Source: a virus (lineage: Duplodnaviria > Caudoviricetes). Taken from it: a DNA stretch of 64,000 nt. Shown in pieces: positions 34,001 to 61,769 of this stretch; position 1 is the stretch's first letter, and the number at the start of each line of letters is the position of its first letter. The DNA lies in the IMG/VR virus record IMGVR_UViG_3300027608_000010; one strand, written 5' to 3'. Made by a program: the position numbers and the translations under genes. Under the pieces are notes generated by a model. That model worked only from the letters and a program-made list of their open reading frames with translations. It was not told where the DNA came from and searched no databases.

Positions 34001-37000
34001 CAGTGTATTCAATCAAAAAGCATATGGAACTTATTATGTGACTATAACTTCCCCCGGTGTTGCATTCAGAGTCGGAGACACTATTACCATTACCGGTGAT
34101 TATTTAGGAGGTGAAACTCCTGAAAACGATATTGTAATTACTGTAACAGAATTGACAACCGGCGGAGTTAGTAGTCCGATAAATAAAGTATCATTTGTTG
34201 GTACTCCTTTTGTCTCGTCTACAATTGATGTAAATGAAGAAAATATTCAAGATGTTGTGCTTACCGCTAGTTTACAAGGTGCAGTAATACCTATAGTTAG
34301 TGCCAGTGCAGATTCAGATGAGACTACTATCATTCAAGTTAACTATTTACCAAGCACATTGAGACCCGGACAGCTTAAAGGATTAAAAGCATATTTTTAT
34401 AGAAATTTAGCACCTTATACATATAATGATACCGGTGCAAACTTTAAAGCAACGGTTGCAATTGGTAGTACATCAACTTTCACAGGCACGATTTCAGGAA
34501 CAACACTAACAGTAACAACAGGTCCTGTAGGTACTGGAATTTCAATAGGTGACATTTTAACTGGTGGCTCAATTGCATCTGATATCTATATTGTTAGAAA
34601 CTTAACCGGTACTAGCACAAGTACAAATAGTTCATGGACTATAAATTCATCGATTACACAAGTCACTACTGTTACATTTACAGTAACTCCTGTAACAATG
34701 ACAGTCACTGAAGTCACGCACGGTAAACTAAGTGCAGGACAGACACTATATGGTACTGGAGTTACTTCAGGAACTAAAATAGCTTTACCAGTAACCGGTA
34801 CTATAGGTGGTACGGGCTCTTACAAATTAACTAAAGCACAAACAGTATCGGCTTCAACAAGCATACAAACAAATGGTGGTGCAATTCTTGAAATTCATAG
34901 ACCAAACTTTGATCCGCTAGTTCTTATTAATAGATACTATCTAAAAATAGTTGATTCAGGTTCTATTTACAAAGACGGGGATACGGTTATTATTCCGGGA
35001 GACCTATTAGGTGGAGTTACCGGTACTAATGATGCTGTTATTGATATTGTATTTGCTAATGACGTTACTGGAGAAATACAGGTTTCAAAAATTAACGGTC
35101 TCTCTGTTGGCTATATTGCTTCTTATTACATTTTCCCATTCTCAGCTAATGAATTGAAAGTATACTCTGATGTTAGTTTAGTAAAACCAGTACCATTCAT
35201 TAACTTCATTTATACAAGTGATGGAACAAATGATTTTGCATATTTACCTGAACCATTGCTAATTAGTGGTGGATACAAGTACGCTATAACAGCCTTAGTC
35301 TCATACAACAACAAAGTATATCGTTGTTTAGAAAGTAACAGCGATGATTATTTTGATAACGCTAAGTGGCAAGAAATTGTTATTTCTGATCGTGAGTTAA
35401 ATGCGGTCGATAGAATTTTGGGTTATTATCAACCAACAATAGATATGCCAGCAAAAGATTTAGGTCAATTGCTACTTGGAGTAACTAATCCTAATCCAAC
35501 TTATCTTGGAAATAGTTTTGCTCCGGATGAAGTCTTACCATTAGATGTTATTGTTAAAGATGATAGATTTTATCCAAGAGAAGTCAACATACATGCAATG
35601 ATACCTATTCCAATCTATGATGAAGAAAACACATTGATTAGAACTGAATACATCTCTATTGGTGAATCTGAGAAAGAATCATTATTAATGGTAAGTAGTG
35701 ATGGTCTTACATGGGGAAAAACTACGCTAGTTGATTGGTCATTTAAAAACTTACATGTAGGAGATATTGGTGTAACGGATGTTGCATTTAATGGGTTTGT
35801 ATATGTTATCACTACAACTAATGCCAAAACGTCATTACTGATAAGTTTTGATAAAGTAAATTGGGTCACTATTGGTGAACAAATATCATATGACTTTGGT
35901 GGTTTTAGTGATATTGGATACGATACAGTTGCTGTTGATAGCCCAGAAACTCCACTAAATGCAATCACATCTGTGGGTGAGAAATTTTTTGCATGCGGTA
36001 TGTATCAAATTGTTAAGAGTGATGACGGTATATTATGGGAAAGCGTATACACTAACACTAGTAGATTATATCAAAATCTTAATGATATACGATATATTGA
36101 ATCTAAAAACTTTGAAGGATATATCGCTGTTGGTATAGGAAATAGAGTAACATCCGGTAATGAAACTGCGGCTCCTGTAGTAGAGAGTTATGGAAAAGTA
36201 ATGTACAGTATTACCGGTAATGAATGGGTCGAAAGTTTTGTGTATTTTACTAATTATGAACTATATGCCATAACTGCATCAGATGTATTAATTGTAGTTG
36301 TGGGAGATAACGGAGAAATTTGGAATAGTTTAAATGCTTCTAACTGGGGGAAAATTTCTCCATTAAATTATCTAGGAAATCCAATAACTACGTCACTACG
36401 AGATGTAATCTATGCTAATGAGATTTTTATTGCTGTAGGTAACAATGGTGTGATACTTAGATCCACTGATGGTTATACTTGGACTGATCAAAATTATCCG
36501 GTACATTTCACAAATGATTTGTGGAATATTTCTTATGATGGCACATACTTCTTTATTGTAGGAAACAATGGTGCAATGTTCCGTAGTGTTAACGGATTAT
36601 TCTGGACAGATATTAGTAATATTACTGTTGAAGAACCGTTGTATAGTATTAAAGGTAGTGACTTCTTAACTGGTTATGGTCCTGAAGAGATGGTTCCTGG
36701 AGTAGTTAGTGACCATATGTATATGCGTGTTCTTACTAGACCAGGCGGATGGTGGGATAATGATACAATATCACAAGAAAAGATTTACGGGTATACTGGT
36801 TTCAACCTGGTATCTAAAATTGATAGTAGCGGAATTACTCTCATAAGTTTTGCAGACATGGTTAAGAACCCTGCTCAATTAGCAGTATTCAGTATTGATA
36901 ATACTACGTTAATGGGTCCTCGTCTTTATGAAGGGATTGATTACCTTGTAAATTGGGTTACTAAACAAATTTCTTTGCTTTATGCTGGTAATTCAGTATT

Positions 37001-38579
37001 GATTGAAGTATATGAGATTGGTAATGGAAATCAATTAGCAAGAGGCACAACTGATCATGTTCCTATATATACTAATTCAATTACCGGCATGAGTGAAATT
37101 AGATTAGATTGTCAATATATCTTATTAGAAACTCCAATAGTATATCACAATGGTTCTAGATTGGAATATATTACTGACTATGTAGTAGAGTTAAGTGAAA
37201 ACAACTTGATGGCAATAATTTTTGAAAATGAATATGATGCTACTGTTGATTTTATTTCATATGCGGTATTAGCTGATAGTACTTACACAACTGATTATAA
37301 TACTGAAGATCATTTTGGTTATAGTATACCCGAGACAGAAGTTTTTGAATATACAACATCAACTACATTCACGTTATCTAACGATTTGTATTATCTTGGC
37401 GCACTGTTGGGCGGTCCAACTGTTGCCACTGATAATGAAAATAATGCAATCGTTGAATTAAATGGATTGAGATTAAATCCTGCAGATTATACAATTGATG
37501 CAGTAGCAGGTACAGTTATTATACCTAGTGCAACCTCAGGTGATATTATTGCGGTCACTTCTTACCATGACACAAAACGTCAATATTTAAATACTGATAT
37601 CTCGACTTCTATAAAAACATATGCAGTATATAATGTAGATACAACTTCATATAATAAAGTTAATATAGTGTTTGAAAATATTACTGGTCTTGTTTCCGGC
37701 GATTTAGTTGTACTAGATGGATTCTTGGGTTCTACTCAACTCAATAATGTTCAAGTTTATGTCAAAGCAGAAACACCGTTTGTAGAAGATACTATAACTT
37801 ATTATCCGTTTAGCTTGTATTTTGAATCAACCTTCTTGACAGCAATCAGAAGTGAGTTGGTAACTAAATATGTAGGTAGAGGGTTTGCAACAAAAGTTAG
37901 TGATCTGATAGACATAACAGTAAGTTTTGTTAATTTAATTTCAACCAGTGAAAATTTTTATGTTGTTCCTACTGATGAAAATAGAACATGGGTGACAGTT
38001 AATGGAAATAGACTGTCTTCTGATCAAATAAGATTTATTCCAGGTGAGAATGCAACTAAATTGAATCTGCTCGTTGAAGTTAACTTAGGTGATGTGGTAA
38101 TAGCGACTACAATGGTCCCTGGAGCTACACCAAATAGCAACTCTTATATTTTAAATGTAAATAAGCATAAAGAAGCATCTGTTAATCAATCTGAAATAAA
38201 ACAGAGTACTTGGATAGTACCAGCAGTAAGACCTGCAGGCGGTAGCCCTGATTTCCTTGTATCTGACGATGTAATCTACTTGAACAATGTTTCAAATGTA
38301 GTATATGAAGATACTAAAATTCTAGAAATTAACGGGGAGAAGATACGCTTCACTACAGTAGATTTTGAAGCAAATACTGTTTCCGGCTTAACTAGGGGAA
38401 TTGAAGGAACTGGACAAAAACTAATTCATAAAGTAAACGATATTGTATTCTCTATATCTAAGGCAACGACCTTGGTAAACGAACAATATAACAAACTTTG
38501 GTATAATAAGCAATCCGGTGATCCTATCCAACTTAGTGATACTGTTGCTACTAGGTTCTTAAATATTGGGCTAGAATAA
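22056..38579 (+). CDS. Giant 5507-aa virion structural protein (gp7-like wedge / fibre scaffold, multidomain)
   Basis: Uninterrupted 16.5-kb ORF directly after gp6; FG-GAP-like repeats (FGYSLA, FGFALD, FGYSVK...VGAP), Asp-box repeats (SSDGLTW, SDDGILW, STDGYTW), Ser/Thr/Gly-rich segment. Confidence 0.7.
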   Translation: MATQVRTIDFLPEIFKTKSNEQFLAATLDQITQQPDFVKVQGFVGSKFGYGVTASDGYVNEPTKERTDYQLEPAVVFKKKDTDVAIDAIPYSGLIDSLRTEGALGLDHNKLFNNEFYSWDSFTELDKIINYSQYYWLPQGPDDIIVATNTLFNNLDFTVTNIGAAYSLNSLLQTFTENNPTITLVRGGTYTFTVSQDSEFWIQTEPGTSGVRADSPNISTREVVGVDFNGSTQGTITFTVPLSSSQNDNYYPGNLSVDLVSDKKFDEVHGKSLSELSQIDGEVNFNGKTLLFYKSTSADIGYRGTFFDEYDFDSDSPGNVEKISIEVTQTEAIGNLIHTTSTSDLAVGSDITFSGISFGGIIVGQVYYVKTVNSSTTFTIAPTFDGTVVALTNGSTDSNAPLLAEVNVGGLEEGKTTTVNDNFYKITLVGDINNPTIYLEEHSAIPNDQRIQVTNGKEYVNRVLVRNTYGEILLVPIITANLDTLYYQDGKTETQFGKINLVDGLYLSKIDVLTDILNKPNYKSPNDVKFTNGIKVKFFGNVFPEEYLQDAYYVEGVGSSIQLIPVSEQLVPEPFTEGEAVPLDSDGFDVSPYSDSALVPALPDYITIGRGSKNKNGWSRSNRWFHVNALNLTLEKNSNSPLVLSAFNNSDVRAKRPIIEFYPDLKLFNSGAIGKPPVDFIDLNTTNAFTQVSGKLATTYHPDGASSFAFDGARIIFANDDDPKIKGQIFIVSLADNNSDYRFKVTLSKAVNGEVRFNDQTVITKGEYSKGLTYYFDGSNWHEAQSKKTINQPPLFDLFDSNGISYGNDEYYPGTDFSGTKLFSYAEGAGQPDPILKFPIKYSSITNIGDIVFESRLNSDTFNYVADSTSITSNINNGYVHSYDSNIDFTRLIGWQTAVEYSIQYQIFNLVYTGSSLICDIAAKDPESTKWPVITVYEDNQRITDYEYTTSATTTKITLLTPPPIGTPVEILIHSDQVSKIGYYQIPSNFDHNPFNEEISTINLGDLRGHYKSICNNLKTIEGPAFGPNNFRDLGNTVPYGTRIIQNSSSLITPAILTKASKFNFLDALLFNSNQYTKFKTSLLDMVNNNDYLSIQPASIILDDALEQITNNRDETMSFFWSDMIPCKGVHSQKTYTFNSSVDASIFPLSRFYDFTNANYFGILVYLSRIIDGTKRTIQLMKDVDYVVKNTEKLLRINTDLLPNDVIIVREYSQTYGNYVPNTPTKLGFYPSYIPEVILDDSYSKPTYFIKGHDGSLTKLFGEYNNGFLEDNRDRALLEFEKRVYNNLKVNAKIPVEYDEIIPGQFRKSDYTFDEINAIYATQFLNWAGNNNIDYTAQTYFETNEFTWNYKGTKNKLDNSYVNQGYWRGIYLWYYDTTTPHTTPWEMLGLVNKPSWWNNRYGEAPYTSDNTLLWTDISNGLIWNNGDSYVNERRIRSRLLEVLPVDSAGRLISPFVSIVNSYNSLSFENTWNVADTGPAEYSYKKSSTWPFDLLRIFALTKPAEFFSLGINLDAFRYNTEFNQYLIFNRKRQTTSDIPVYGDGTATHSLFNWIVDYANQYGIDGHTQLVEYITNIDVRLAYRMAGFSDKSLLKFFAEKGSPNSKNNSLLIPDESFNILLTHNQPTKNIIYSSVIIQRTRKGYRVYGNDKERSYFVANDPRFDGRYENISMGSQTVSLSTHFFNSTTIYPYGYEFTSVLTLANFLNGYGKYLASVGFTFENIENGIEINWRQMIVEVLYWVDSGWEEGSVINLNPNASSLTISNSIGVVQSLTDTNNNLIFNQNQIPISLKDLAITRLGTTFTVKVLNSGDAIGFFKANISSYEHIVIFDNITVFNDILFNLKTGLRQQRLFMRGSKTAQWDGTLNAPGFIINQDNILDWEANVRYSKGSIVKYKNSYWIYLPAMSKPQSVFKPEEWNPVDYNLMQKGLLPNASTRAKESTLYYDSNTTNLKKDADLLSFSLIGYRPRNYFSEINLDDTTQVNLYKSMIVNKGTKNSLDILLGATLQETDLNYTFHDNWAIKQSEYGGKMNKNFIEVTLDEKLLVGNPSIVSITQGITEDGAHQEIQFYDIKNYSTPPKDVNFLPSISATEENLLPSAGYVNIDDIQTYAFYPGMLNSANIGDLYKNDYVWVADVAGDWKVYTPIRLGINLITVRNSLNSQAVFVFDNPHTLTENELFGVINFNPNINGYYTVIGVLSLNSISVIKNIDPSTTTLTGIGITFKLSNQRVERAKDILGLPLLNAEYVKNKVWVDKDVNGEWNVLQKTNSYTYKTASTPALSVEFGATVAAIDSGYLVADPSAGKVFYYVDSALSATDWKLSATLSQGSGFGSAIASNDKILVISQPDPFGDLSKIYIYRMVANSKINCLVEEQIISFTNTMFGTGITVGSVGTALALSGDGNYLYISATDLILDGSPTVGLFFSFQLDQGLIYYDVGYTLSSAITPGSTQFDIYGDIGTAPQGRRITFTAFGVGDDVYTIVTAKYNSSTLITTVYIYETIPYTVSTGSTMYLGVLNYSLVGAVSSEGYGGYQDKFGYSLATNHDGTRLFVGSPLADWSYGAGLVDTGFVFSFNRLVEKWEVVGDSPLNSAALFFLSWTPNYGSAVYINEVRVNPSYYVLISNLLVTFLELKSGDIITVSSGNVLLMQRLQGAGTIDEFDSFEKFGFALDCNTSATDLIVGSPNNLDSLGHEGAVFRFTNEGKRTGVITGIIQCHLLCPVDIFINGFRVSLPDPDPYQGIAGDAFYVANRINLSVVNNVFAYASEDNRLHIRLRDFNLGPVNNKLNITVFGSNYYHKDTFTGDGVTAAFTLENAPANISALTVTIDGLNIPYAVLNNDNSITIYFTLTGSVVTFVQAPWNAGEIIITWTEALAAPSTILTQLGISEYITTEVITDPRPSSRTSFGYSVKFNELNSFIVGAPTTDRYFSTSFDFTDDTNNHNDCVFDNNFTQWEDIYKNAGTAYIYEYIDSQGETLLTLGNYTYAQSLPDLSTSYGKQPYYGKSVSLRNNHAVIGAPSHRYLTGNNVGRAVAYQNLTGDKHWSVLRKSTSITDVSKIQKVQLYDNETNQTLDSLDYFDPLQGKLLGTIADNLDFITTIDPAGYNNEMFTGTIVWTANKVGTLWFDISSTKFMNYHQEDIEYNSKYWGAVFPGSIVTVYSWIESNVIPINYPGPGTPYDYSSYSMSYENDAGGNLNVHYYYWVRNTNKLFSAHGKTLTDTVIESYIKDPHGSGIDYFVALKPNVFGLYNVREYINEKTTNLHIGYSSTDVDIPIHSEFQLIRSNYTNDFLPGLPDGRNYLAPEGLYRKFIESFAGQDDFGQVLPNPGLPKLLQIGIGSRPNQTMFIDRSTALKNYLQYANRVLKNYPISELPNLNFLSLAGEDYDTTLFWDYVYWWADGYSDNVKTIFEVDAYYDLVKETVKEGTIVGVSKNSQGKREVYKFTSGVWERIGVEDGTIEFSSKLWNPVGDNIGYGDDFFDVSSFDAYPAVETKNIIRALNEQIYTGELAEHRNKSLILMFEYIQSENVNSNNYLPWLTKTSLADVSYKIRELKPYQKYQNENTNLLEGFINEIKPYHTVLKEFYFTYSGTESYEMSMTDFDLPATFSSFTSRYESPKLKYVNVNTEADIVSTDTIWSTNTEYNLWYNNFGLELESKENQQIGVVSKYLGTTSTEIFLENARGVPVTGLIKINDELIRYTQVDREQKRLYGLSRGVDNTIVTEHYPKTIVYSDSSGVVVVSSGRGYVDPPIVKAYIDTSKYPAPRKEAVLRSVLVDDKVVEVQIIDPGDGYVVTPEIIFDPAFSITFDGTQLNYQSNLLVIESDDLRTGDQIKITSNSNQFEAIQPGYYYARVLGFNTRLLTAAKPVVSLHYRYLDSISGEYKVVFKINKLNLPLSYTLAMVPKVVVKTKNSKSRQLNSKLRFDRTSYNSFIVPWESGIFWPSSFNSLGNDASSNVPISVSTEYKFDQTLAILDGTISVASSTGEGFKFSVFNQKAYGTYYVTITSPGVAFRVGDTITITGDYLGGETPENDIVITVTELTTGGVSSPINKVSFVGTPFVSSTIDVNEENIQDVVLTASLQGAVIPIVSASADSDETTIIQVNYLPSTLRPGQLKGLKAYFYRNLAPYTYNDTGANFKATVAIGSTSTFTGTISGTTLTVTTGPVGTGISIGDILTGGSIASDIYIVRNLTGTSTSTNSSWTINSSITQVTTVTFTVTPVTMTVTEVTHGKLSAGQTLYGTGVTSGTKIALPVTGTIGGTGSYKLTKAQTVSASTSIQTNGGAILEIHRPNFDPLVLINRYYLKIVDSGSIYKDGDTVIIPGDLLGGVTGTNDAVIDIVFANDVTGEIQVSKINGLSVGYIASYYIFPFSANELKVYSDVSLVKPVPFINFIYTSDGTNDFAYLPEPLLISGGYKYAITALVSYNNKVYRCLESNSDDYFDNAKWQEIVISDRELNAVDRILGYYQPTIDMPAKDLGQLLLGVTNPNPTYLGNSFAPDEVLPLDVIVKDDRFYPREVNIHAMIPIPIYDEENTLIRTEYISIGESEKESLLMVSSDGLTWGKTTLVDWSFKNLHVGDIGVTDVAFNGFVYVITTTNAKTSLLISFDKVNWVTIGEQISYDFGGFSDIGYDTVAVDSPETPLNAITSVGEKFFACGMYQIVKSDDGILWESVYTNTSRLYQNLNDIRYIESKNFEGYIAVGIGNRVTSGNETAAPVVESYGKVMYSITGNEWVESFVYFTNYELYAITASDVLIVVVGDNGEIWNSLNASNWGKISPLNYLGNPITTSLRDVIYANEIFIAVGNNGVILRSTDGYTWTDQNYPVHFTNDLWNISYDGTYFFIVGNNGAMFRSVNGLFWTDISNITVEEPLYSIKGSDFLTGYGPEEMVPGVVSDHMYMRVLTRPGGWWDNDTISQEKIYGYTGFNLVSKIDSSGITLISFADMVKNPAQLAVFSIDNTTLMGPRLYEGIDYLVNWVTKQISLLYAGNSVLIEVYEIGNGNQLARGTTDHVPIYTNSITGMSEIRLDCQYILLETPIVYHNGSRLEYITDYVVELSENNLMAIIFENEYDATVDFISYAVLADSTYTTDYNTEDHFGYSIPETEVFEYTTSTTFTLSNDLYYLGALLGGPTVATDNENNAIVELNGLRLNPADYTIDAVAGTVIIPSATSGDIIAVTSYHDTKRQYLNTDISTSIKTYAVYNVDTTSYNKVNIVFENITGLVSGDLVVLDGFLGSTQLNNVQVYVKAETPFVEDTITYYPFSLYFESTFLTAIRSELVTKYVGRGFATKVSDLIDITVSFVNLISTSENFYVVPTDENRTWVTVNGNRLSSDQIRFIPGENATKLNLLVEVNLGDVVIATTMVPGATPNSNSYILNVNKHKEASVNQSEIKQSTWIVPAVRPAGGSPDFLVSDDVIYLNNVSNVVYEDTKILEINGEKIRFTTVDFEANTVSGLTRGIEGTGQKLIHKVNDIVFSISKATTLVNEQYNKLWYNKQSGDPIQLSDTVATRFLNIGLE

Positions 38580-44803: not shown

Positions 44804-46216
44804 ATGTCAGATTTTAATAATCATATCAAGATAGTAAAAGAGAAACTAGATACAGTTAGTCCTAGTTTTTGTGTGGCTAAATGGAAACAAGTTACAATGC
44901 ACTTACAGAACGGACATACACATAGTTGTCATCATCCGTCAACACACTTAGTACCGTTAGATGAAATTGCTTCAAACCCCACAGCACTACACAATACTAA
45001 TTATAAAAAATTACAAAGAAAATTGATGATAGAGGGTGAAAGACCCAGTGAATGTGATTATTGTTGGAAAGTAGAAGATCAAACCACTGATAGTTATAGT
45101 GACAGGGTTTATAAAAGTTCAGATCAATGGGCATTACCTTATGTAGATGATATTGTTAGCAAGCCTTGGGATGATAATGTAGATCCTAGTTATGTTGAAG
45201 TTAGTTTTGGTAATACATGTAATTTTAAATGTAGTTACTGTGCCCCTCATATTAGTAGTCAATGGATGGAAGAAATTGAAAGATATGGTCCATATCCTAC
45301 TAGCGGTAAATTCAATAATTTAGAATGGATCAAATTACAACAGATGATGCCTATTCCAAATAGAGATGAAAATCCCTATGTTGAAGCATTTTGGAAATGG
45401 TGGCCTACTATGTATAAGAGTTTGCAACATTTTAGAATCACCGGTGGCGAACCCTTATTAAACAAAAACACTTTCAAAGTTTTAGACTATGTTATTGACA
45501 ATCCAAATGCAAATTTAGAATTATCAATTAATACAAATCTAAATCCTCCGGATGATATATTTGATAGATTTATTGAAAAACTTAATATCATTATCAGTGA
45601 AAAGAAATTAAAAGAATTGAAGCTATTTACTAGTGCTGAAGCACATGGTAAGCAAGCTGAATATATTCGTTTTGGTATGAATTATGATACTTGGTTAACT
45701 AATTTACATAGATTATACAAAGAAGTCCCGGGTATACAAATTACTATTATGAGTACATACAATATATTGAGTATCCCAAGTTATGGTAAGTTTCTAAATG
45801 ATATATTAGAAATTAAACGAACTTACGGTGAAGTAGTTAACAAGCGTAAGAATCCCAATCCAATGATATTAGATATACCTTACTTACGATATCCAGAACA
45901 TCAATCAATATTTTTGATGGAAGCGTCAATGGTTGATATGATTTTTGACCAAGTAACTTTCATGTATAGAAATTTGCAAAATAAAGATTGGATGGGAACA
46001 TCTAATGATGGATTCTATGAGCATGAAGCGGAAAAATTAAAACGTATATATGAGATGGGTCTACACTCAGTCACTAATAAAAATGAATATGTAGATAACA
46101 ATCGTAAAGACTTTATTAAATTTGTTGATGAGCATGATTTGCGCCGCGGAACAAATTTCTTAGAAACTTTCCCTGAAATGAAAAACTTTTATAATAATTG
46201 TAAAAACCTATTATGA
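44804..46216 (+). CDS. Radical SAM protein with N-terminal auxiliary Cys cluster
   Basis: CNFKCSYC (CxxxCxxC), ITGGEP; additional CVAKW, SCHH and CDYCW. Confidence 0.9.
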   Translation: MSDFNNHIKIVKEKLDTVSPSFCVAKWKQVTMHLQNGHTHSCHHPSTHLVPLDEIASNPTALHNTNYKKLQRKLMIEGERPSECDYCWKVEDQTTDSYSDRVYKSSDQWALPYVDDIVSKPWDDNVDPSYVEVSFGNTCNFKCSYCAPHISSQWMEEIERYGPYPTSGKFNNLEWIKLQQMMPIPNRDENPYVEAFWKWWPTMYKSLQHFRITGGEPLLNKNTFKVLDYVIDNPNANLELSINTNLNPPDDIFDRFIEKLNIIISEKKLKELKLFTSAEAHGKQAEYIRFGMNYDTWLTNLHRLYKEVPGIQITIMSTYNILSIPSYGKFLNDILEIKRTYGEVVNKRKNPNPMILDIPYLRYPEHQSIFLMEASMVDMIFDQVTFMYRNLQNKDWMGTSNDGFYEHEAEKLKRIYEMGLHSVTNKNEYVDNNRKDFIKFVDEHDLRRGTNFLETFPEMKNFYNNCKNLL

Positions 46217-48895: not shown

Positions 48896-49668
48896 CACAC
48901 ATTGCAACATGCGGTGATAGTTTTGGTGTAGGTACTGGATTACCTCAGGATAGATGTTTTGAAGATAGTTTTGGGGGAATTATTGCTAGTCATTTCAATC
49001 TACCTCAGAAAGTATATGCTCGGGCAGGTTGCTGTAATTTTGTCATTTATCTTCAAATTAAAAAGATAATAGAACAAATCGAAAAAGATGAAACGTATAA
49101 ACCTTTCGTATTGGTTACTACTACTTACCACGAAAGATTAATCTTTCCGTTAGATAACGGCACAATATATAAAAATCCAAACTTATCAGATGTTGAATAT
49201 AAATCATATAACCCCTATCATGATACAACACATGCTAAGGGCAGAGAATTGGCTTTTGAATCAAAAAAGAATACAAGATTAGTAGCTGAAACTATTTCAA
49301 ACATAAAACATTTTCAAGATGGAAAAGCCGATGGAATAGCAAGATTATTTGCAAAAGTAGATAAATCAAAACTTGAAGCAATCAAATCATACTATACGGA
49401 TATATTTGACACCGGTATTAAAAGTGAATATGACCAAGCATTAATTATTACAATGAGTTTTTTATTGAAAAAATTTAACATCCCCCATGTTATTATGGGT
49501 TATCCGTCATTAGAACTTACATATCTTGAAAATTTTATGCCAAATGATTGGGGATATTATACTAGATTATATCCAGACACTATGGGCAGTTCACATTGCA
49601 ATGAAGAAGGAAACAGGCTCGTAGGTGAAAATGTTATTAACTTTATTAAAGAACATCACTTGATATGA
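48889..49668 (+). CDS. SGNH hydrolase-like protein
   Basis: GDSFGVG, CCN, HCNEEGN. Confidence 0.65.
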   Translation: MVTHIATCGDSFGVGTGLPQDRCFEDSFGGIIASHFNLPQKVYARAGCCNFVIYLQIKKIIEQIEKDETYKPFVLVTTTYHERLIFPLDNGTIYKNPNLSDVEYKSYNPYHDTTHAKGRELAFESKKNTRLVAETISNIKHFQDGKADGIARLFAKVDKSKLEAIKSYYTDIFDTGIKSEYDQALIITMSFLLKKFNIPHVIMGYPSLELTYLENFMPNDWGYYTRLYPDTMGSSHCNEEGNRLVGENVINFIKEHHLI

Positions 49669-50384
49669 ATATATTGTTTGGATTATGTGGCGCGGGTAAA
49701 CGTTTTCGTGATGTAGGGTACACCATACCTAAATACATCATTGATGTTAATGGATCTCCCATGATTGAACATGCAGTAAAGACTTTAAAAATTTTGGGCG
49801 ATGTATTTTTTATTGTATTGAAAGAACACATGGATCAATACCCGCAAATTAAAGATATATTGTCACCTATGGGTACTATCATAGTTAGCGAATTTACTAC
49901 TCAAGGTGCCGCGCAAACATTGTTACTAGCCAAAGATTATATTGATTTAACTAAGCCCTTGATATCAGCTAACGGAGATCAATATTTAGATTGGGACTCT
50001 AGTTGCTTTAATTCAATGCTATGCGATTATCCTAATACTTCATATATTTTAACATACAAGGAAAATGATACTAAGTGCAGTTATATTAAAAAAAATGAAA
50101 AAGGTGATATTATTGAAGTTAGAGAGAAACAAGTTATAAGCAATGACGCAACTGTAGGAGTGTATCATTGGGCCAGTGCATCTGATTTTTTTAAGGACGC
50201 AGAAACAATGATTGCAGCAGATTATAGAGAGAACGGGGAGTATTATGTTGCGCCAGTATACAATTATTCAATAAAGCGTGGCTTGCAAGTTAAAAATTAC
50301 GAATTGTCTGATAAAGAATTTTGGCCGATAGGTACACCAAATGATTTGGAAAACTTTTTAAAAGTGATACAGCCCAATGATTAA
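49665..50384 (+). CDS. Sugar-phosphate nucleotidyltransferase
   Basis: GAGKRF...PKYIIDVNG, TTQGAAQT, NGDQY, EVREKQVIS, ENGEYYVAPVYN, IGTPNDL. Confidence 0.85.
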   Translation: MNILFGLCGAGKRFRDVGYTIPKYIIDVNGSPMIEHAVKTLKILGDVFFIVLKEHMDQYPQIKDILSPMGTIIVSEFTTQGAAQTLLLAKDYIDLTKPLISANGDQYLDWDSSCFNSMLCDYPNTSYILTYKENDTKCSYIKKNEKGDIIEVREKQVISNDATVGVYHWASASDFFKDAETMIAADYRENGEYYVAPVYNYSIKRGLQVKNYELSDKEFWPIGTPNDLENFLKVIQPND

Positions 50385-51114
50385 AAATATATTAATAGTT
50401 ACTTGGAATCAAGATTGGCATCAATGTTCTAATATGTTAATTCCTTCTATATCTAAATTTATCCCCGGAGCTAATATTAAAATAGTTGATACTACATTTC
50501 ATACACCCTCACCTATAATCGCCCCTAGCTTTAGTAATATAACATACGAAGTATTACCTGCAATACAATTATTAGAAACACTAGAACCTTGGAAAGGCGA
50601 CAATCATAATGAAGGTTGGATGTACCAACAGATGTGTAAATTAGCAGGATACAAATTATTTGATAGTGAATTTGTAGTATTAGATTCTGAATTAGTAATA
50701 CTTAGAAAATTTGATAAATGGCCTACATATTGTAGGCTAACAGCCAGTAATACTCATTTTAATAAATTTATAGAATATGCTAGTGCTAGATTGAATATTG
50801 ATTGCGAAGGTCATTGTTTTTTAGAACCGTGTGTTCCGTATATATTAGATCCTAAGATTTTAAAAGAAATAGTTTCAACATTTGGGTCATTTGCAGAATT
50901 ATATAAATGGTTTATCACACATTCGGAGCCTAGTGAATTTATACTTTACGATTTATTTAAATATAGAAAAGACTTGCAACAAGACACTAATAACCAAAAT
51001 ATATATGAAAGCCCGGCAATACAATTTATAATAGACAATAAACCGTATGTTTTGGATAGTAGATACGATTTTGCTTTGATTAACCGTAATGCCTATATGA
51101 ATTTTGGAAAATAG
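50377..51114 (+). CDS. Hypothetical protein, possible glycosyltransferase-like
   Basis: GWMYQQMCKL, VLDSE, SEFILY. Confidence 0.45.
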   Translation: MIKNILIVTWNQDWHQCSNMLIPSISKFIPGANIKIVDTTFHTPSPIIAPSFSNITYEVLPAIQLLETLEPWKGDNHNEGWMYQQMCKLAGYKLFDSEFVVLDSELVILRKFDKWPTYCRLTASNTHFNKFIEYASARLNIDCEGHCFLEPCVPYILDPKILKEIVSTFGSFAELYKWFITHSEPSEFILYDLFKYRKDLQQDTNNQNIYESPAIQFIIDNKPYVLDSRYDFALINRNAYMNFGK

Positions 51115-51116
51115 AT

Positions 51117-51443
51117 ATGAAAATAGCACACATAGAACAATTCACAAAGGGTTGGTTTGTTGGTAACTTTGATCCTAGCTTGTTGAAAGCTGATTTTGAA
51201 GTAGGACTACATCAACACAAAGCCGGAGAATTCCACCAAGATCATTTTCATAAATTAGGTACAGAGATTAATGTTATGATAGAAGGTCACTTACTATTAA
51301 ACGGAAATGAGTTCGGCCCGGGTGAAATTTTTGTATTAGAGCCATACGAAATTAGTCAAGTAGAGTATCTAACAGATGTTAAATTAATCGTAGTTAGAGA
51401 TATTAGCGATCCTAATGACAAATATGAAGTAGAGATAAAATGA
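51117..51443 (+). CDS. Cupin-fold protein (possible sugar epimerase/isomerase)
   Basis: KGWFVGNF, HFH..GTEINVMIEG cupin motif. Confidence 0.75.
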   Translation: MKIAHIEQFTKGWFVGNFDPSLLKADFEVGLHQHKAGEFHQDHFHKLGTEINVMIEGHLLLNGNEFGPGEIFVLEPYEISQVEYLTDVKLIVVRDISDPNDKYEVEIK

Positions 51444-52558
51444 ACATTTATATCAATGAGATACCCACAGACCATATCAAAGTAACATATCAGGTTACCT
51501 CTACTAAAAATCTATCTATTGCGGCAGAGGCAATTGCTATAGGACAGAGTATCGGCAACCCATCTGTACGAAATGAGTTTGAATCACCTGAATTAGTTAG
51601 TAATCATTCTGCTAAAATATTAGGAGATAAAAATGAATTGTCTAAAATAACTGATGGTGAAATAATTATTGGTTATCCGTTAGTAAATATTAATTGGGAT
51701 GAAGATGGTGTATCACAACTACTTTGTATGATTCAAGGTGGACAGCTTGACATAGACCATATAGTTAAGTGTAGAGTAACTGACATTGATATAACTAATT
51801 TGCCTATGCTTAAGCCAAAGTTTGGTCTTTCAGGTATAAGAGAACTAACTAAAACATATGATCGACCTTTATTAGGATGTATATTAAAACCTAAGACAGG
51901 ACTACGCCCTAAAGAGCTATCATTATTAGTTAAGGAAATGATTGCTGGCGGGGCTAACATTATTAAAGAAGATGAAATTTTAGGATCACCCTCATACTGC
52001 AATTTAGAATCACGCTTACCCTACATTAGAGATATTATACAAGATAAGAATGTAGTTTATCTTACTTGCATTAACAGCAATCCAGACAAACTTATAGAAA
52101 AGTCTAGTACTGTTAGGATGCTAGGAGTTAATGGTATACATATTAATATCTGGAGTGGTTTAGGTAGTTATGCCGCTGTTCGAAATAAAAATTATCCACT
52201 AGTCATGCATTACCAAAAGAGTGGTGATAAGATTTTAACCAATATACATAATCCATATGGTATCGATTGGATAGTTCTATGCAAGTTAGCAATCATTAGT
52301 GGTATCGATACTATACATGCCGGAATGTGGGGCGGATACTTAAGTGATGATCCTGTATACCTTAAAAATATTATGGACACATTAACTAGTCACAATGTAG
52401 TCCCTGCATTGAGTTGTGGAATGAATGCAACATTAATACCACAAGTTACCGCTAAGTTTGGTGTTGATTACTTAGCGAATGTAGGCGGGGCGTGTCATAC
52501 ACATCCTGATGGAATTAAGGCTGCTGTACGGGAATTACGAAATGCCATCGACAGATAA
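51440..52558 (+). CDS. RuBisCO-like protein (form IV RLP)
   Basis: LGCILKPKTGL, IIKEDE (carbamylated Lys motif), MHYQ, DTIHAG, PALSCG, GGACHTHPDG; lacks the RuBisCO E60, N123 and K334 equivalents. Confidence 0.9.
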   Translation: MNIYINEIPTDHIKVTYQVTSTKNLSIAAEAIAIGQSIGNPSVRNEFESPELVSNHSAKILGDKNELSKITDGEIIIGYPLVNINWDEDGVSQLLCMIQGGQLDIDHIVKCRVTDIDITNLPMLKPKFGLSGIRELTKTYDRPLLGCILKPKTGLRPKELSLLVKEMIAGGANIIKEDEILGSPSYCNLESRLPYIRDIIQDKNVVYLTCINSNPDKLIEKSSTVRMLGVNGIHINIWSGLGSYAAVRNKNYPLVMHYQKSGDKILTNIHNPYGIDWIVLCKLAIISGIDTIHAGMWGGYLSDDPVYLKNIMDTLTSHNVVPALSCGMNATLIPQVTAKFGVDYLANVGGACHTHPDGIKAAVRELRNAIDR

Positions 52559-53495
52559 CATCACAATACTTAAAGGCGGTTCTTTAAATTCGACATGCCT
52601 ACATGAAAACTCTATGGGTAAGTTTGTTAGAAAAAAAATAGCTACAGATAAGAATAGAGAATATGGATATGTTCGATGGTATAGTCAGCTAAAGAAATTA
52701 CAACGTTATAATAGTATGTTTCCTGGATTTGTTCCAAAGGTCTTGGATGCAGGAGTTAATGATAATGAAGCATACTTTGATATTGAATATATTGATGGTA
52801 TAGATATTAAGACTTTGTTTAAGAATAATCTAATAGATGATGTAGAAAAGTTGAATCAATCATTATGGGAAGCATTTGACTTGATACATCATAGGTCATA
52901 TAGTCCACTGCGTAGTTCTCTTATGCTTTACTTTATGGAAGAAGTAGAACAGAAACTACATGATGCACTAGAGTTCCCAGAGTTCAGAGACTTTTACATG
53001 ATGGATGTATATGAGTACAGGGGTGAAACATTTAGGGGCATGATCGGACAGCACGATAAGTTCAAAAAACTATTCAATAGAGATATTACTAGTGAAGGCT
53101 ATGTCCACGGCAATCCTACACTTGAAAACATACTATACAATACTGATACAAACAAAATAACCTTTATTGATTTATATGAAGAAGGGATAGTTGATAGTAG
53201 ATATTCAGATTATAGTCAGGTGTTACAATGCAGTAATAGTCACTATGGATTGATAAATGATTCAATAGTAACAATTAATGATAATCAGATTATGTCCGAT
53301 TATATTATACCAGATAAATTAGCAGAGTTCAATTCGTTGTTTATAGAAAATATTGAAGACAACACATCGTTGGTAATGCTATTTGAGGCTACCCAATATT
53401 TTAGAATGTTACCGTTTAAGTGTCATAGTGGTAACATATCTCACGCTAAGTTTTTTTATGGGTATGGATGCTATCTAGTAAATAAATTACTATGA
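52542..53495 (+). CDS. APH/choline-kinase-fold phosphotransferase
   Basis: FVRKK, YFDIEYI, HGNPTLENIL, FIDL; start placed at ATG 52542 rather than 52509. Confidence 0.7.
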   Translation: MPSTDNITILKGGSLNSTCLHENSMGKFVRKKIATDKNREYGYVRWYSQLKKLQRYNSMFPGFVPKVLDAGVNDNEAYFDIEYIDGIDIKTLFKNNLIDDVEKLNQSLWEAFDLIHHRSYSPLRSSLMLYFMEEVEQKLHDALEFPEFRDFYMMDVYEYRGETFRGMIGQHDKFKKLFNRDITSEGYVHGNPTLENILYNTDTNKITFIDLYEEGIVDSRYSDYSQVLQCSNSHYGLINDSIVTINDNQIMSDYIIPDKLAEFNSLFIENIEDNTSLVMLFEATQYFRMLPFKCHSGNISHAKFFYGYGCYLVNKLL

Positions 53496-54583
53496 TATGT
53501 AACATAAAAACATCACTCCCGATTGAATTTGAAATCCGTAAAGCTGTCAACGTATTATCGTTATCCGAAATTACTAGTAAAAGAAAAATTGTTATAATTG
53601 ACAGAAATGTTTATGAGTTATATTCCGATCAACTATTTGATGACGTAGATTCGTTGTTATTTATAGACTCGTCCGAAGAAAACAAAGATTGGACAACTGC
53701 GGAAATGGTACTAACCTTCTTAGAAGAAAATAAAATATTACGTAGGTCAGAACCAGTAATAGCAATAGGTGGCGGAGTCTTATTAGACTTAGTAGGATTT
53801 TGCTGTAGCATATATCGTAGGGGTATTCCTTACATTCGTATACCCACGACATTACTAGCAATCGTTGACGCTAGTGTGGGAGCAAAAACAAGCGTAAATC
53901 ATTTTAATAGAAGAAATCGTTTGGGTAGTTTTTATCCACCACAACTAACATTGATTGACACTACGTTTATCAAAACACAATCTGATAGAGAAATATCTAA
54001 TGGCTTTGCAGAGATATTAAAATTAGCAATCGTGTTAGATAGTAAGTTGTTTGAATTAATAGAAACAGATTCAGATAAGTTACTACAGTGCAAATTTCAA
54101 GATACCGCACATTCAACTGAAATAATTGAACGGGCAATTGCAGGTATGACCAAAGAACTTAATGATAATTTGTGGGAGCAAGAATTAGAAAGACCAGTAG
54201 ATTTTGGTCATTCATTCAGTCCCCTAATTGAAATGAAGAACGTACCTAATCTACTTCACGGAGAAGCAGTTATACTAGATTGTTTATTAAGTTGCTGTAT
54301 ATCAACTGTTAGAAACCTTCTCTCAGCGGATGAGTTAACTAGAATATTTAATTTGACTAGAAAAATGAATCTACCTGTAACTCATACTGATTTTTTAAAT
54401 AGCACATTATTGTTAGAAGGCTTGTCTGATGTAATGAAGCACAGAAACGGAAATCAATACTTACCTATACCAACATCTATTGGACAGTGTAAAATCATCA
54501 ATGACCTAACACCTGCTGAATTAGAATCAGCAATACAACTAATGAGATTATATGAAAAAGACCATATTGATTACTGGCACTAG
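53492..54583 (+). CDS. Sedoheptulose-7-phosphate cyclase, 2-epi-5-epi-valiolone synthase (EEVS)-type
   Basis: DHQS-family core (IGGGVLLD, RIPTTLL..VDASVGAKT, EILK) plus NLWEQELERPVDFGHSFSP and KHRNG, the EEVS-type signature rather than AroB NLGH or DDGS AYGH. Confidence 0.8.
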   Translation: MICNIKTSLPIEFEIRKAVNVLSLSEITSKRKIVIIDRNVYELYSDQLFDDVDSLLFIDSSEENKDWTTAEMVLTFLEENKILRRSEPVIAIGGGVLLDLVGFCCSIYRRGIPYIRIPTTLLAIVDASVGAKTSVNHFNRRNRLGSFYPPQLTLIDTTFIKTQSDREISNGFAEILKLAIVLDSKLFELIETDSDKLLQCKFQDTAHSTEIIERAIAGMTKELNDNLWEQELERPVDFGHSFSPLIEMKNVPNLLHGEAVILDCLLSCCISTVRNLLSADELTRIFNLTRKMNLPVTHTDFLNSTLLLEGLSDVMKHRNGNQYLPIPTSIGQCKIINDLTPAELESAIQLMRLYEKDHIDYWH

Positions 54584-55217
54584 TAGTGGTCTAGGTTTAG
54601 CTCTGGCAAAACACTATAGCAAGAATCACAATGTTATTGGATTAAGTAGAACCAATGTAGAAATGCCTAATTATACTCATCATATTTGTGATATTAGTAA
54701 CTTTGATAACGTATCTAAAACATTTTATTCCATCGGTGATAGTAAAATTGATTTACTGATTAATAATGCAGGGGTATTTGATATGGACAAGTTTACTCAA
54801 ACATCTATCCATACTATTGACCGTGTTATTAATACTAACCTGACAGGTGCCATGTATGTAACCAGATCAGCATTAGAGTCAATGCCAGATCATAGTAAAA
54901 TAGTCTTTATCAATAGTGTAGCAGGATTAGAAGAATTAGAGAATCAAAGTATATATTGTGCTAGTAAGTATGGTCTAACTGCATTTGCTGGAATACTTGG
55001 TAAAGAACTAAGAGACAGACATATCAAAGTCTCTAGCATACACCCCGGTGGGATTAATACCCCATTATGGGATAATACCCCATACCCGTTAGGAGATGCT
55101 ACTAATGCAATGGATCCAAATTCTATAATAGAAATTATCGACCTAATTGTAAACAGTAAATATGATATTGATTACAAAACTGTCAAAATGTTTCCGTCTA
55201 TTGAATGGCATAACTGA
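54552..55217 (+). CDS. Short-chain dehydrogenase/reductase
   Basis: TGTSSGLG, NNAG, S, YCASK. Confidence 0.92.
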   Translation: MKKTILITGTSSGLGLALAKHYSKNHNVIGLSRTNVEMPNYTHHICDISNFDNVSKTFYSIGDSKIDLLINNAGVFDMDKFTQTSIHTIDRVINTNLTGAMYVTRSALESMPDHSKIVFINSVAGLEELENQSIYCASKYGLTAFAGILGKELRDRHIKVSSIHPGGINTPLWDNTPYPLGDATNAMDPNSIIEIIDLIVNSKYDIDYKTVKMFPSIEWHN

Positions 55218-55227
55218 AAGATAAACT

Positions 55228-55344
55228 ATGAGAAACTTATTTCAAACACTATATTATAATACAATTGGAAAATTAGTTAGAGAATACAAGTATAGAAAAC
55301 GATTAAAAGAGTTACGTAAACGAGATCCATTTATCTACAAATGA
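55228..55344 (+). CDS. 38-aa basic protein (not in track)
   Basis: MRNLFQTLYYNTIGKLVREYKYRKRLKELRKRDPFIYK; ATGA overlap with the carbamoyltransferase. Confidence 0.6.
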   Translation: MRNLFQTLYYNTIGKLVREYKYRKRLKELRKRDPFIYK

Positions 55345-56864
55345 ATATACTAGGAATCAGTGCCGGCTTTCATGACGCTGCCATCTCAGTTGTTAACACC
55401 CAAGGTGATATACTGTTTGCCGGCCACAGCGAACGCTACAGCAAGATAAAAAACGATGCACACATCAGCGCAGGCTTGATTGAAGAAATCTTCGGATTTG
55501 ATATTGATACCATTGCCTACTATGAACGACCCTGGGCCAAACAACTGCGTAGGCTTTACAGTGGCGAAGGTGTGCAATGGGGAGCCCTGACTGTAGAGCA
55601 ATGCTTACAAAGAGAACTCGGCGATCATCTAAAAATTTCCAGAGAACAAAACATCACGGATCCTCTGCATCCTGCTACAAATCTAAGAACCAGATCCTTC
55701 AATCACCATCTTAGTCATGCAGCCGGTGGATTTCAAACAAGTCCGTATGATCGTGCTACAGTTGTTGTGATTGATGCCATAGGTGAGTGGGATACGATAT
55801 CGATCTGGGGAGCCGAGTATGACAAGAGAGGCCGAGCACAGTATAAGAGATTGTGGACACAGCGCTATCCTCACAGCCTAGGTTTGTTTTATAGTGCAAT
55901 TACTAAGCGTGTGGGCCTACACCCATTAGACGAAGAATACATTACTATGGGCATGGCTGCTTATGGTGATGACCATTACCATGATCTTATGGAGGCAGTA
56001 TTGATCAGCGATGCAGACTCCATAGAATTCAAACAAAACTTGCACATAGGCGTTAGTGATAAATTCATGGACGGACTGGATCACATGGATATCGCTGCCA
56101 GTGCTCAACGGTTGTTACAACGACTAATAGGTAATGTCATGCGTAGAGCCAGGGATTTTAAGTGGTCAACCAATCTTGTGTATCAGGGTGGTGTTGCACT
56201 CAACTGTCTGGCCAATAGACAACTAGGAAGATTTTTTGAAAATATTTGGATTATGCCTTGCCCCGGTGATGCTGGCAGTAGTCTTGGCGCTGCTGCTCTT
56301 GCTCATGGTGGCAGGATTAATTGGACTACTGCTTTCTTGGGTCATGCTATACCCGGTAACTATCCCGTTAATGATGCTCTTAATCATCTCATTACTAATA
56401 GTATTGTTGGTGTAGCAAGTGGGCGTGCAGAATTTGGCCCAAGAGCATTGGGAAATAGAAGCCTACTTGCAGACCCAAGAGGAAAAGAAATAAAGGACCA
56501 AGTAAATGCAATCAAACGCAGACAAAAGTTTCGACCCTTTGCCCCTGTTATACTGGCTGAACTGGCTGATGACTATTTTGATATCAAGCCCGGCTGGCAT
56601 ACTCACAGTTATATGCAGTCAGTCGCTAGTTGCCGCGATCCTAATCTTTACCCTGCTATATGTCATGTTGATGGCACCAGTAGAGTACAAACGGTGGCAA
56701 AGGATGGATCAGGTATAAGACAGTTGTTAGAAGCCTGGTATGCACAAACAGGTTGCCCAATGTTATTGAACACTAGTCTTAACATACGCGGTGAACCCAT
56801 GGTAAATGATAGAACTGATGCTGATAGATTTCAGAATTTATACAATGTACAGGTCTTTTCGTGA
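55341..56864 (+). CDS. O-carbamoyltransferase (NodU/CmcH/TobZ family)
   Basis: GISAGFHDAA, ERYSKIKND, HHLSHAA, GGVALNC, GDAG, EFGPRALGNRS, KRRQKFRPFAP, DGTSRVQTV, LLNTSLN. Confidence 0.92.
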   Translation: MNILGISAGFHDAAISVVNTQGDILFAGHSERYSKIKNDAHISAGLIEEIFGFDIDTIAYYERPWAKQLRRLYSGEGVQWGALTVEQCLQRELGDHLKISREQNITDPLHPATNLRTRSFNHHLSHAAGGFQTSPYDRATVVVIDAIGEWDTISIWGAEYDKRGRAQYKRLWTQRYPHSLGLFYSAITKRVGLHPLDEEYITMGMAAYGDDHYHDLMEAVLISDADSIEFKQNLHIGVSDKFMDGLDHMDIAASAQRLLQRLIGNVMRRARDFKWSTNLVYQGGVALNCLANRQLGRFFENIWIMPCPGDAGSSLGAAALAHGGRINWTTAFLGHAIPGNYPVNDALNHLITNSIVGVASGRAEFGPRALGNRSLLADPRGKEIKDQVNAIKRRQKFRPFAPVILAELADDYFDIKPGWHTHSYMQSVASCRDPNLYPAICHVDGTSRVQTVAKDGSGIRQLLEAWYAQTGCPMLLNTSLNIRGEPMVNDRTDADRFQNLYNVQVFS

Positions 56865-60832: not shown

Positions 60833-60934
60833 ATGTTTGAAAATTGGCATTGGGTTTATATGTGGGGCATCTTAGTTATAGTCAACTATATGTTCTGGAT
60901 AGTAAAAAATCTTTTTGACAGTGTGAAAGAGTAA
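60833..60934 (+). CDS. 33-aa putative membrane peptide (not in track)
   Basis: MFENWHWVYMWGILVIVNYMFWIVKNLFDSVKE. Confidence 0.4.
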   Translation: MFENWHWVYMWGILVIVNYMFWIVKNLFDSVKE

Positions 60935-61215
60935 GAACAGCGTAAACCTGCTGAGGAAACACTGGCGACACGGGAGTTCAATTCTCCCCACCTCCACCAA
61001 AAGCACATTCGGTATGCACATAGCATACAGAGACATTAGAAACATGATTGTGCTTTTGATGGGGGTGACATGGGATCGACCGACAGGATAGTACAAAGAT
61101 TAGGCGCTCATCAGAGTAGATGTTAAAACTAAACAAAAGTAACCGCAAACGACTCACAGTTCGCATTAGCAGCCTAAACACTGCTTAGGGTAAGACATAC
61201 CTCGTAACAGAAAAT
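60935..61215 (+). ncRNA. ssrA: Circularly permuted (two-piece) tmRNA; outer boundaries approximate
   Basis: T-arm GGGAG-TTCAATT-CTCCC and CACCTCC-ACCA (60972-60999) precede GGGGGTG (61061-61067), forming an acceptor stem with G3.U70; intervening segment closed by CAAAAGCACA/TGTGCTTTTG; tag ANDSQFALAA-stop at 61145-61177. Confidence 0.92.
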
Positions 61216-61217
61216 CA

Positions 61218-61243
61218 GAAAAGGCTCTTCGGAGCCTTTTTCT
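61218..61243 (+). terminator. Intrinsic terminator after tmRNA
   Basis: AAAAGGCTC-TTCG-GAGCCTTTT followed by further T. Confidence 0.85.
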
Positions 61244-61357
61244 CTAAGTGTTTACACTTAGTAAGAACAATGAATTTCACTATGTTATTTTTGATTTTTC
61301 CGTGTATAATAGTGATACATACTATGACAGTATGTCAAACTTAACCAGGAGAAAACT

Positions 61358-61429
61358 ATGTGGACAAAACCAACAGCATCTGATATGCGTTTCGGTTTCG
61401 AAATCACGATGTATATTGCCAACCGCTGA
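61358..61429 (+). CDS. pqqA: PQQ precursor peptide PqqA (not in track)
   Basis: [23 protein letters not shown]: 23 aa with the W.KP, R.G.E and E-x-x-x-Y pattern; AGGAG SD at 61347-61351; TATAAT at 61305-61310. Confidence 0.9.
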
Positions 61430-61443
61430 TATACATTGAAATC

Positions 61444-61475
61444 AAGAAAAGGGCACTAGTTGCCCTTTTTTCTTT
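61444..61475. terminator. Intrinsic terminator after pqqA (bidirectional-like)
   Basis: AAAAGGGCA-CTAGT-TGCCCTTTTTT. Confidence 0.85.
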
Positions 61476-61523
61476 ACTACGTTAGATAAATCTATATAAT
61501 AGAACGTCAACTTAGGAGATATC

Positions 61524-61769
61524 ATGTCAAGTCTAACTACTTATTTTGAAAACAAAGCATACAAACCCACATACTTTATTGGTGATCGTGTGTTTGGGCA
61601 TTACAATAAAATTCCATTTATAGCAAGCGTGGGCAATGACCGAGTTATAGGTCTTGATGGTCCGGACATCACAGTACATTTAGATTTACCTATCAAAGTA
61701 GATGGTGTAGTTAAGACTATGCTTATAGTCAAACACAAAGATATCAAGCCCTTAAAGGAGTTTAAATGA
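61524..61769 (+). CDS. Hypothetical protein
   Basis: 81 aa, AGGAG SD; YFIGDRVFG. Confidence 0.65.
   Translation: MSSLTTYFENKAYKPTYFIGDRVFGHYNKIPFIASVGNDRVIGLDGPDITVHLDLPIKVDGVVKTMLIVKHKDIKPLKEFK

Follow-up and report, generated by a model that had tools for sequence, protein, structure and literature searches.

We identify a genuine phage pqqA gene in a 64-kb stretch of viral DNA (IMG/VR record IMGVR_UViG_3300027608_000010; hereafter the window), where the open reading frame at 61358-61429 is established as such by both its family identity and the anatomy of the cassette in which it lies. This self-contained cassette probably serves to top up the PQQ precursor for methanol oxidation by the host. 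PqqA is a ribosomally made peptide in which PqqE, together with PqqD, joins residues Glu15 and Tyr19 by a cross-link, PqqD being the protein that recognizes the conserved N-terminal leader; the cross-linked product then passes through PqqF/G, PqqB and PqqC to yield one PQQ, with one peptide consumed per cofactor. The phage peptide is presumably translated and processed by the host versions of these enzymes.

A stand-alone pqqA cassette in a T4-like jumbo myophage

An earlier note, made from the letters of the window, had proposed that a short open reading frame missed by gene calling encodes PqqA and had named a profile search as one way to check it. The 23-residue peptide scores 40.2 bits with the PF08042 profile (cut-off 21.1) and 40.4 bits with the equivalog-level TIGR02107 profile (cut-off 20), passing both models at about twice their curated cut-offs, which settles the identification. 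Likewise, a back-translated pattern of the PqqA core had a single match in the window and none in any of 100 shuffles. The core Glu15-Ile-Thr-Met-Tyr19 is intact, and the length of 23 residues falls within the range of about 20-40 residues seen in the family. The N-terminal MWTKP is that of the copies from Methylophilaceae and Methylophaga, while positions 6-9, 16 and 20-23 differ from the common host peptide. The elements of the cassette, together with the RNA gene that precedes it, are as follows:

60901-61243, + strand: two-piece (permuted) tmRNA gene of the betaproteobacterial type (RF01850, RF04321)
61267-61283, no strand assigned: box ACAATGAATTTCACTAT, agreeing at 13/17 positions with the host 7-3-7 palindrome CTMATGAWWWTCATKAG, the "pqq box" (cassette alignment)
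61282-61287, + strand: poor -35 hexamer ATGTTA, 3/6 (promoter scan)
61305-61310, + strand: perfect -10 hexamer TATAAT (direct reading)
61317-61335, + strand: leader hairpin, stem ACAUACU/AGUAUGU with a 5-nt loop (RNA folding)
61347-61351, + strand: Shine-Dalgarno sequence AGGAG, with the ATG 6 nt further on (direct reading)
61358-61429, + strand: pqqA, 23 codons and a stop (PF08042, TIGR02107)
61445-61478, + strand: intrinsic terminator, a GC-rich 10-11-bp stem with a 5-nt loop followed by a T-run (folding and terminator scan)

Direct reading places the TATAAT, the AGGAG and the 23-residue frame with its Glu-x3-Tyr core exactly where the earlier note had put them. Its further proposal that the unit possesses its own terminator is borne out: the hairpin at 61445-61471 has a folding energy of -13.5 kcal/mol (z = -3.5), none of 200 shuffles folds as well, and a terminator scan independently flagged the site. 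The overlapping repeats it had reported in the leader (CATACT/AGTATG and TGACA/TGTCA) are indeed present but are not significant on their own, as the single 7-bp stem of -5.2 kcal/mol (z = -0.99) is equalled in stability by 33 of 200 shuffles. The same stem (ACATACT...AGTATGT), there with an 11-nt loop, recurs in the pqqA cassette of a related jumbo phage record (G006). The range first given for the unit, 61290-61475, holds the elements that it was said to hold; it missed the host-type palindrome just upstream, at 61267-61283.

The promoter was not called by a scan for consensus promoters because its -35 hexamer, ATGTTA, is poor. Across the collected copies of the gene a Shine-Dalgarno sequence precedes pqqA in 118 of 120 viral cases (among the matches listed) and in 123 of 129 bacterial ones. 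A perfect TATAAT, on the other hand, is found upstream of 39 of 119 viral copies (again among the matches listed) versus 2 of 125 bacterial copies, an excess that the AT-rich composition of phage DNA may be enough to explain. The gene that follows pqqA (61473-61769, + strand; 81 residues, no family above the Pfam cut-off) has a good sigma-70-like promoter of its own (TTTACT, 16 nt, TATAAT; 61473-61500) directly past the pqqA terminator, and the stretch around pqqA is a run of such single-gene units.

Family searches show that the window belongs to a T4-like jumbo myophage, with a gp20-type portal, baseplate proteins, gp25 and gp46/47-like proteins. The nearest isolates are jumbo phages of the PA5oct and Atu_ph07 types, at about 40% amino-acid identity, and the GC content of the window is 35%. 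A closer relative is the above-mentioned G006, a 356-kb IMG/VR record estimated to be 96% complete, which carries a close pqqA and whose gp46-like protein is 53-61% identical to that of the window. Downstream of the baseplate genes, positions 22056-38579 (+ strand) form a single open reading frame for 5507 residues.

Typically, though not by definition, pqqA is found in a pqqABCDE operon, a context absent from both the window and its near-complete phage relatives. Family searches of the open reading frames recovered neither pqqB-E nor a methanol dehydrogenase within the 64-kb window. PqqC was absent from 50 pqqA-bearing viral records, seven of them at least 90% complete, and searches of four near-complete viral records including G006 returned no PqqB, PqqC, PqqE or PQQ-dependent methanol/ethanol dehydrogenase, whereas the positive control, Methylophilus rhizosphaerae, gave matches for all four. 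The description of the gene as standing alone, without pqqB-E, therefore holds for the window, and its near-complete phage relatives agree. The only radical SAM protein of the window, encoded at 44804-46213 (+ strand), was rejected as PqqE since it is a twitch-domain radical SAM protein (NF033640, 338 bits). It sits within a long sugar-type gene island, which at 49665-56864 codes for a nucleotidyltransferase, a RuBisCO-like protein, an AroB-like cyclase, an SDR protein and a NodU-like carbamoyltransferase.

The phage tmRNA gene directly upstream of the pqqA unit (RF01850, 112 bits against a gathering score of 84; RF04321, 88.6 bits) ends in its own terminator at 61219-61240 and went undetected by ARAGORN. 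Comparable two-piece tmRNAs of the beta-type were found in four of five other pqqA-bearing phage records (126-155 bits). Among phages, the two genes adjoin only in the window and in L103 and L034, the records closest to it by peptide; elsewhere they lie 6 kb (L016) or 44-84 kb (G047 and G006) apart. Capture of ssrA and pqqA together from a host was rejected, since the tmRNA and pqqA genes are never neighbors in the five host genomes examined. We also rejected the use of the tmRNA type to indicate the host: a beta-type tmRNA scored above threshold in 0 of 37 bacterial genomes that have this PqqA subtype, and the phage tmRNA is for that reason uninformative about the host. The tmRNA of the cultured methylophage Melnitz is likewise of a type unlike that of its host.

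Distribution, selection and mobility of the viral pqqA genes

A tblastn search of GenBank phages recovered intact PqqA frames in Venkman, Melnitz (four records), MEP301, MEP401, MEP402 and P19250A, with 65-73% identity to the window peptide. Every cultured methylophage record returned by this search has such a frame, and the search also matched one spring-water contig. The Melnitz and Venkman peptides pass the TIGR02107 model, the former with 34 bits. The OM43 phage isolates that a 2023 paper lists as all those known are exactly the OM43 isolates in which we found pqqA. These cultured methylophages infect marine OM43 or freshwater LD28 bacteria, have small or mid-size genomes, and share only the cassette with the jumbo phage of the window. 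Two further records labelled Acinetobacter phage MD-2021a (H11 and H12), which are metagenome-derived, contain weaker PqqA-like frames (59% identity, E = 0.02); these may represent either phage pqqA genes beyond the phages of methylotrophs or contamination with host DNA.

Scanning IMG/VR with a degenerate DNA pattern yielded at least 120 contigs coding for MWTKP-type peptides of 23-25 residues. In bacterial genomes the subtype MWTKP...RFGFE[VI]TMY occurs in Methylophilaceae (Methylophilus, Methylotenera, Methylobacillus, Methylovorus, Methylopumilus and OM43-like MAGs) and in Methylophaga, often in multiple copies per genome, and among the matches listed many viral peptides are letter for letter identical to host peptides. 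The earlier guess of a freshwater methylotroph or a member of Burkholderiales as host fits this distribution, since Methylophilaceae are placed in Burkholderiales by GTDB. Judged by peptide subtype and operator type, the two features used for this prediction, the phage most likely infects a low-GC freshwater bacterium of the Methylophilaceae.

The 112 viral copies of equal length among the matches listed comprise 100 distinct coding sequences that specify 45 peptides. In these copies the entropy at codon positions 1, 2 and 3 is 0.35, 0.21 and 0.98 bits respectively, and pN/pS across the viral copies among the matches listed is about 0.16. Similarly, the genes of the window and of L016 are separated by 13.5 synonymous and 2.5 non-synonymous changes. 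The retrieval pattern fixed about half of the residues and so inflates the apparent conservation; residues that the pattern left free (Phe12, Phe14 and Met18) are likewise conserved. Viral pqqA is under purifying selection. The gene is of host type, resides in a genuine phage genome and is selected, as would be expected of an auxiliary metabolic gene of phages.

When the window was compared with other viral contigs, the nucleotide similarity covered the coding frame and the Shine-Dalgarno sequence, in some cases also the leader and promoter, and never reached the flanks. Shared synteny with the closest pqqA contigs was rejected, as these have no other detectable gene in common with the window. 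The cassettes of G006 and the window align over the upstream box and all that follows it as far as the -10 region; this alignment and the shared leader stem indicate that the box, -10 hexamer, leader, Shine-Dalgarno sequence, coding frame and terminator are inherited together as a unit.

A candidate operator upstream of host and phage pqqA

Alignment of the cassettes revealed a conserved motif approximately 85-90 nt upstream of the ATG. Its bacterial form is a 7-3-7 palindrome, CT(A/C)ATGA-www-TCAT(T/G)AG, located 110-145 nt before pqqA. Core scores of at least 13/15 are attained in 60 of 125 bacterial upstream regions versus 1.9% of random 160-nt windows, and in 31 of 116 viral copies among the matches listed versus a background of 1.1%. 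The exact 17-mer occurs at nine sites in five methylotroph genomes, eight of them before pqqA and one directly before pqqB, with no occurrence of the reversed control pattern; if one mismatch is allowed, 12 of 16 sites in six methylotroph genomes are at pqq genes. The site before pqqB belongs to a Methylophilus rhizosphaerae locus (L253; G052:C10:54729-54745) and has no pqqA between the palindrome and pqqB, which would place the pqq operon and the dispersed pqqA copies under one operator.

The inner 15 bp of the palindrome resemble what we take to be the core of the E. coli Fur box. A Fur box was nevertheless rejected, since the exact and one-mismatch sites lie almost all at pqq genes and none at a recognizable iron-uptake gene. 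This genome-wide distribution favors a PQQ-specific regulator over Fur. In two of the four host loci examined, a PAS/HisKA_3 kinase and a NarL-type response regulator (Response_reg+GerE) are encoded directly before pqqA.

By its score alone the 13/17 box of the window is at chance level, given 33 such matches in the window versus about 33 in shuffles of this AT-rich DNA; its meaning derives instead from its position. It lies 21 nt before the TATAAT, the commonest spacing among the viral cassettes (in the matches listed), and it aligns, weak as the match itself is, with the boxes of G006 and L014. Its center is at about -42 relative to the predicted start (~61317), where it overlaps the -35 region. 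A box near -42 that takes the place of a poor -35 hexamer would correspond to the layout of an activator-dependent promoter. We tentatively raise the possibility, which we hold with somewhat less than even confidence, that the phage pqqA is wired into the PQQ regulon of its host, having kept a site for the NarL-type regulator in a class-II-like position around -42 while its -10 hexamer was upgraded to TATAAT. If this were the case, the signal that prompts PQQ synthesis in the host would also switch the phage gene, and the many sites on replicating phage genomes could titrate the regulator off host promoters; it would also constitute a phage metabolic gene that has inherited a dedicated two-component operator from its host. 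The candidate operator thus offers a testable tie between a host signaling system and a phage metabolic gene.

A close parallel is found in the orphan pqqA genes on Methylophilaceae chromosomes, which are of the same 23-residue subtype and stand-alone, with their own Shine-Dalgarno sequence and terminator and the 7-3-7 palindrome upstream. They differ in that their box is a far better palindrome than the 13/17 box of the window and lies 110-145 nt before the ATG, leaving a longer leader, against about 90 nt in the window. The pqqA of Melnitz also has a box (15/17) and, like that of the window, sits among RNA genes. In the bacterial loci L123-L242 a further conserved half-site-like element (TTTCATGA.TTTC) is found 5-17 nt downstream of the palindrome, suggesting that more than one dimer of the regulator may bind there.

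Proposed role, alternatives and relation to known systems

We propose that the host would supply all the enzymes of PQQ synthesis and the phage only the consumable precursor. After the phage has taken over host transcription, its PqqA would keep PQQ reaching the periplasmic methanol dehydrogenases (XoxF/MxaF), and the sustained oxidation of methanol would in turn maintain energy and the flow of C1 carbon during infection. The promoter combines a perfect -10 hexamer with a candidate host-type PQQ operator near -42. Transcription of the cassette is accordingly probably by the host RNA polymerase, and the NarL-type regulator of PQQ genes in the host may control it. Two parallel patterns concern the precursor alone: hosts multiply only pqqA among the pqq genes, and in at least five unrelated phage lineages pqqA occurs by itself. 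That a Methylophilaceae genome has one pqqBCDEFG but 3-12 copies of pqqA (Beck et al. 2014, PMC4109929) we count as support for the importance of precursor dosage in the hosts. Both the benefit to the phage and the function of the operator are predictions.

The recurrence of the cassette in unrelated contexts, with similarity ending at its borders, is also what would be expected of a mobile moron, and many viral peptides among the matches listed are identical to host ones. Thus, the cassette could be a neutral passenger captured from a host or another phage, its conservation being due merely to recent transfer. We consider this unlikely, as synonymous sites in the viral copies are near saturation (pS 0.5-1.0) while the peptide is kept (pN 0.04-0.13), and as cultured methylophages from five or more unrelated lineages have the gene, as do seven near-complete uncultured genomes. 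A different kind of reading ascribes to the cassette a role in interference, whereby a poor substrate ties up PqqD and PqqE, or the operator copies soak up the regulator, with the result that the host makes PQQ at an altered level or not at all. The retention of an operator-like box beside the gene would accord with this, as would the substitutions at positions 6-9, 16 and 20-23 by which the window peptide departs from the common host form. However, all of these positions also vary in bacterial PqqA, neither the invariant core nor the WTKP leader is altered, and many phages (among the matches listed) carry the exact host peptide; moreover, a decoy needs neither the conserved Glu and Tyr nor a strong Shine-Dalgarno sequence and terminator. 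Interference is accordingly improbable in our assessment.

It might alternatively be the DNA itself that matters, with the host-like stretch of about 70 nt acting as an attP core or as a recombination target in the multi-copy pqqA of the host. Several of the IMG/VR copies do lie at contig ends, as would be seen at prophage borders or at assembly breaks induced by repeats, and small multi-copy genes are known to be able to serve as integration targets. Yet the phage is a T4-like jumbo myophage in which family searches of the larger open reading frames of the window found no integrase or recombinase, its pqqA shares no more than about 80% of its nucleotides with other copies although the encoded peptide is conserved, and a complete frame with Shine-Dalgarno sequence, promoter and terminator has been retained rather than a 3' fragment, so that we give this explanation hardly any weight. 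Very little probability attaches also to a role of the peptide or its product outside cofactor supply, for instance as a signal for the two-component system encoded near pqqA: such sensor kinase and regulator pairs do adjoin host pqqA copies, but the peptide matches the cofactor precursor at the equivalog level (TIGR02107) and the signaling reading is purely hypothetical. The supply of precursor for PQQ synthesis by host enzymes hence remains our preferred reading.

A comparison may be drawn with psbA of cyanophages, which encodes D1. In that case, too, the phage encodes only the fastest-consumed part of an energy-harvesting system of its host. The comparison is one of analogy, with no homology between the proteins, as D1 is a structural subunit that undergoes turnover whereas PqqA is a stoichiometric substrate.

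Phage pqqA is not new in kind, having been known since 2020, when Coutinho et al. (Microbiome 8:163, PMC7678222) described viral PqqA in Methylophilaceae phages of Lake Baikal (population VP_266), interpreted the gene as auxiliary metabolic, in support of methanol dehydrogenase, and thereby already put forward the supply reading preferred here. Compared by description rather than by sequence, VP_266 resembles the present case in having a PQQ precursor gene on an uncultured freshwater phage with a predicted methylotroph host. It differs in that it also encodes a methanol dehydrogenase, none of which was found in the window or in the related near-complete jumbo record G006. The anatomy of the cassette, the operator and the tmRNA neighbor are undescribed for VP_266 (PMC7678222), and the candidate host-type PQQ operator in the phage cassette may represent a modest addition to what is known of viral PqqA. 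Methylophilaceae (OM43, LD28/Methylopumilus and Methylotenera) are major consumers of methanol in lakes and oceans, and a phage gene that sustains their PQQ supply would bear on the flow of carbon during infection.

The gene falls below the length cut-offs of gene callers and is missing or miscalled in the GenBank records of all the cultured methylophages returned by our search, where the PqqA frames bear either no feature or an unnamed "hypothetical protein". Given this state of annotation, adding pqqA would be an inexpensive correction to the records, and the gene is a useful marker for the hosts of uncultured phages. The papers describing Melnitz and MEP401/402 leave the gene unmentioned. 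No feature is annotated over pqqA in Venkman, MEP301, MEP401/402 and P19250A. In the region 2961-3066 of Melnitz-1 (L001; MZ577095.1) an intact pqqA lies between the genes for tRNA-Arg and tRNA-Leu, and the record annotates over it, on the other strand, a hypothetical protein (locus_tag ..._151) that is probably a wrong gene call.
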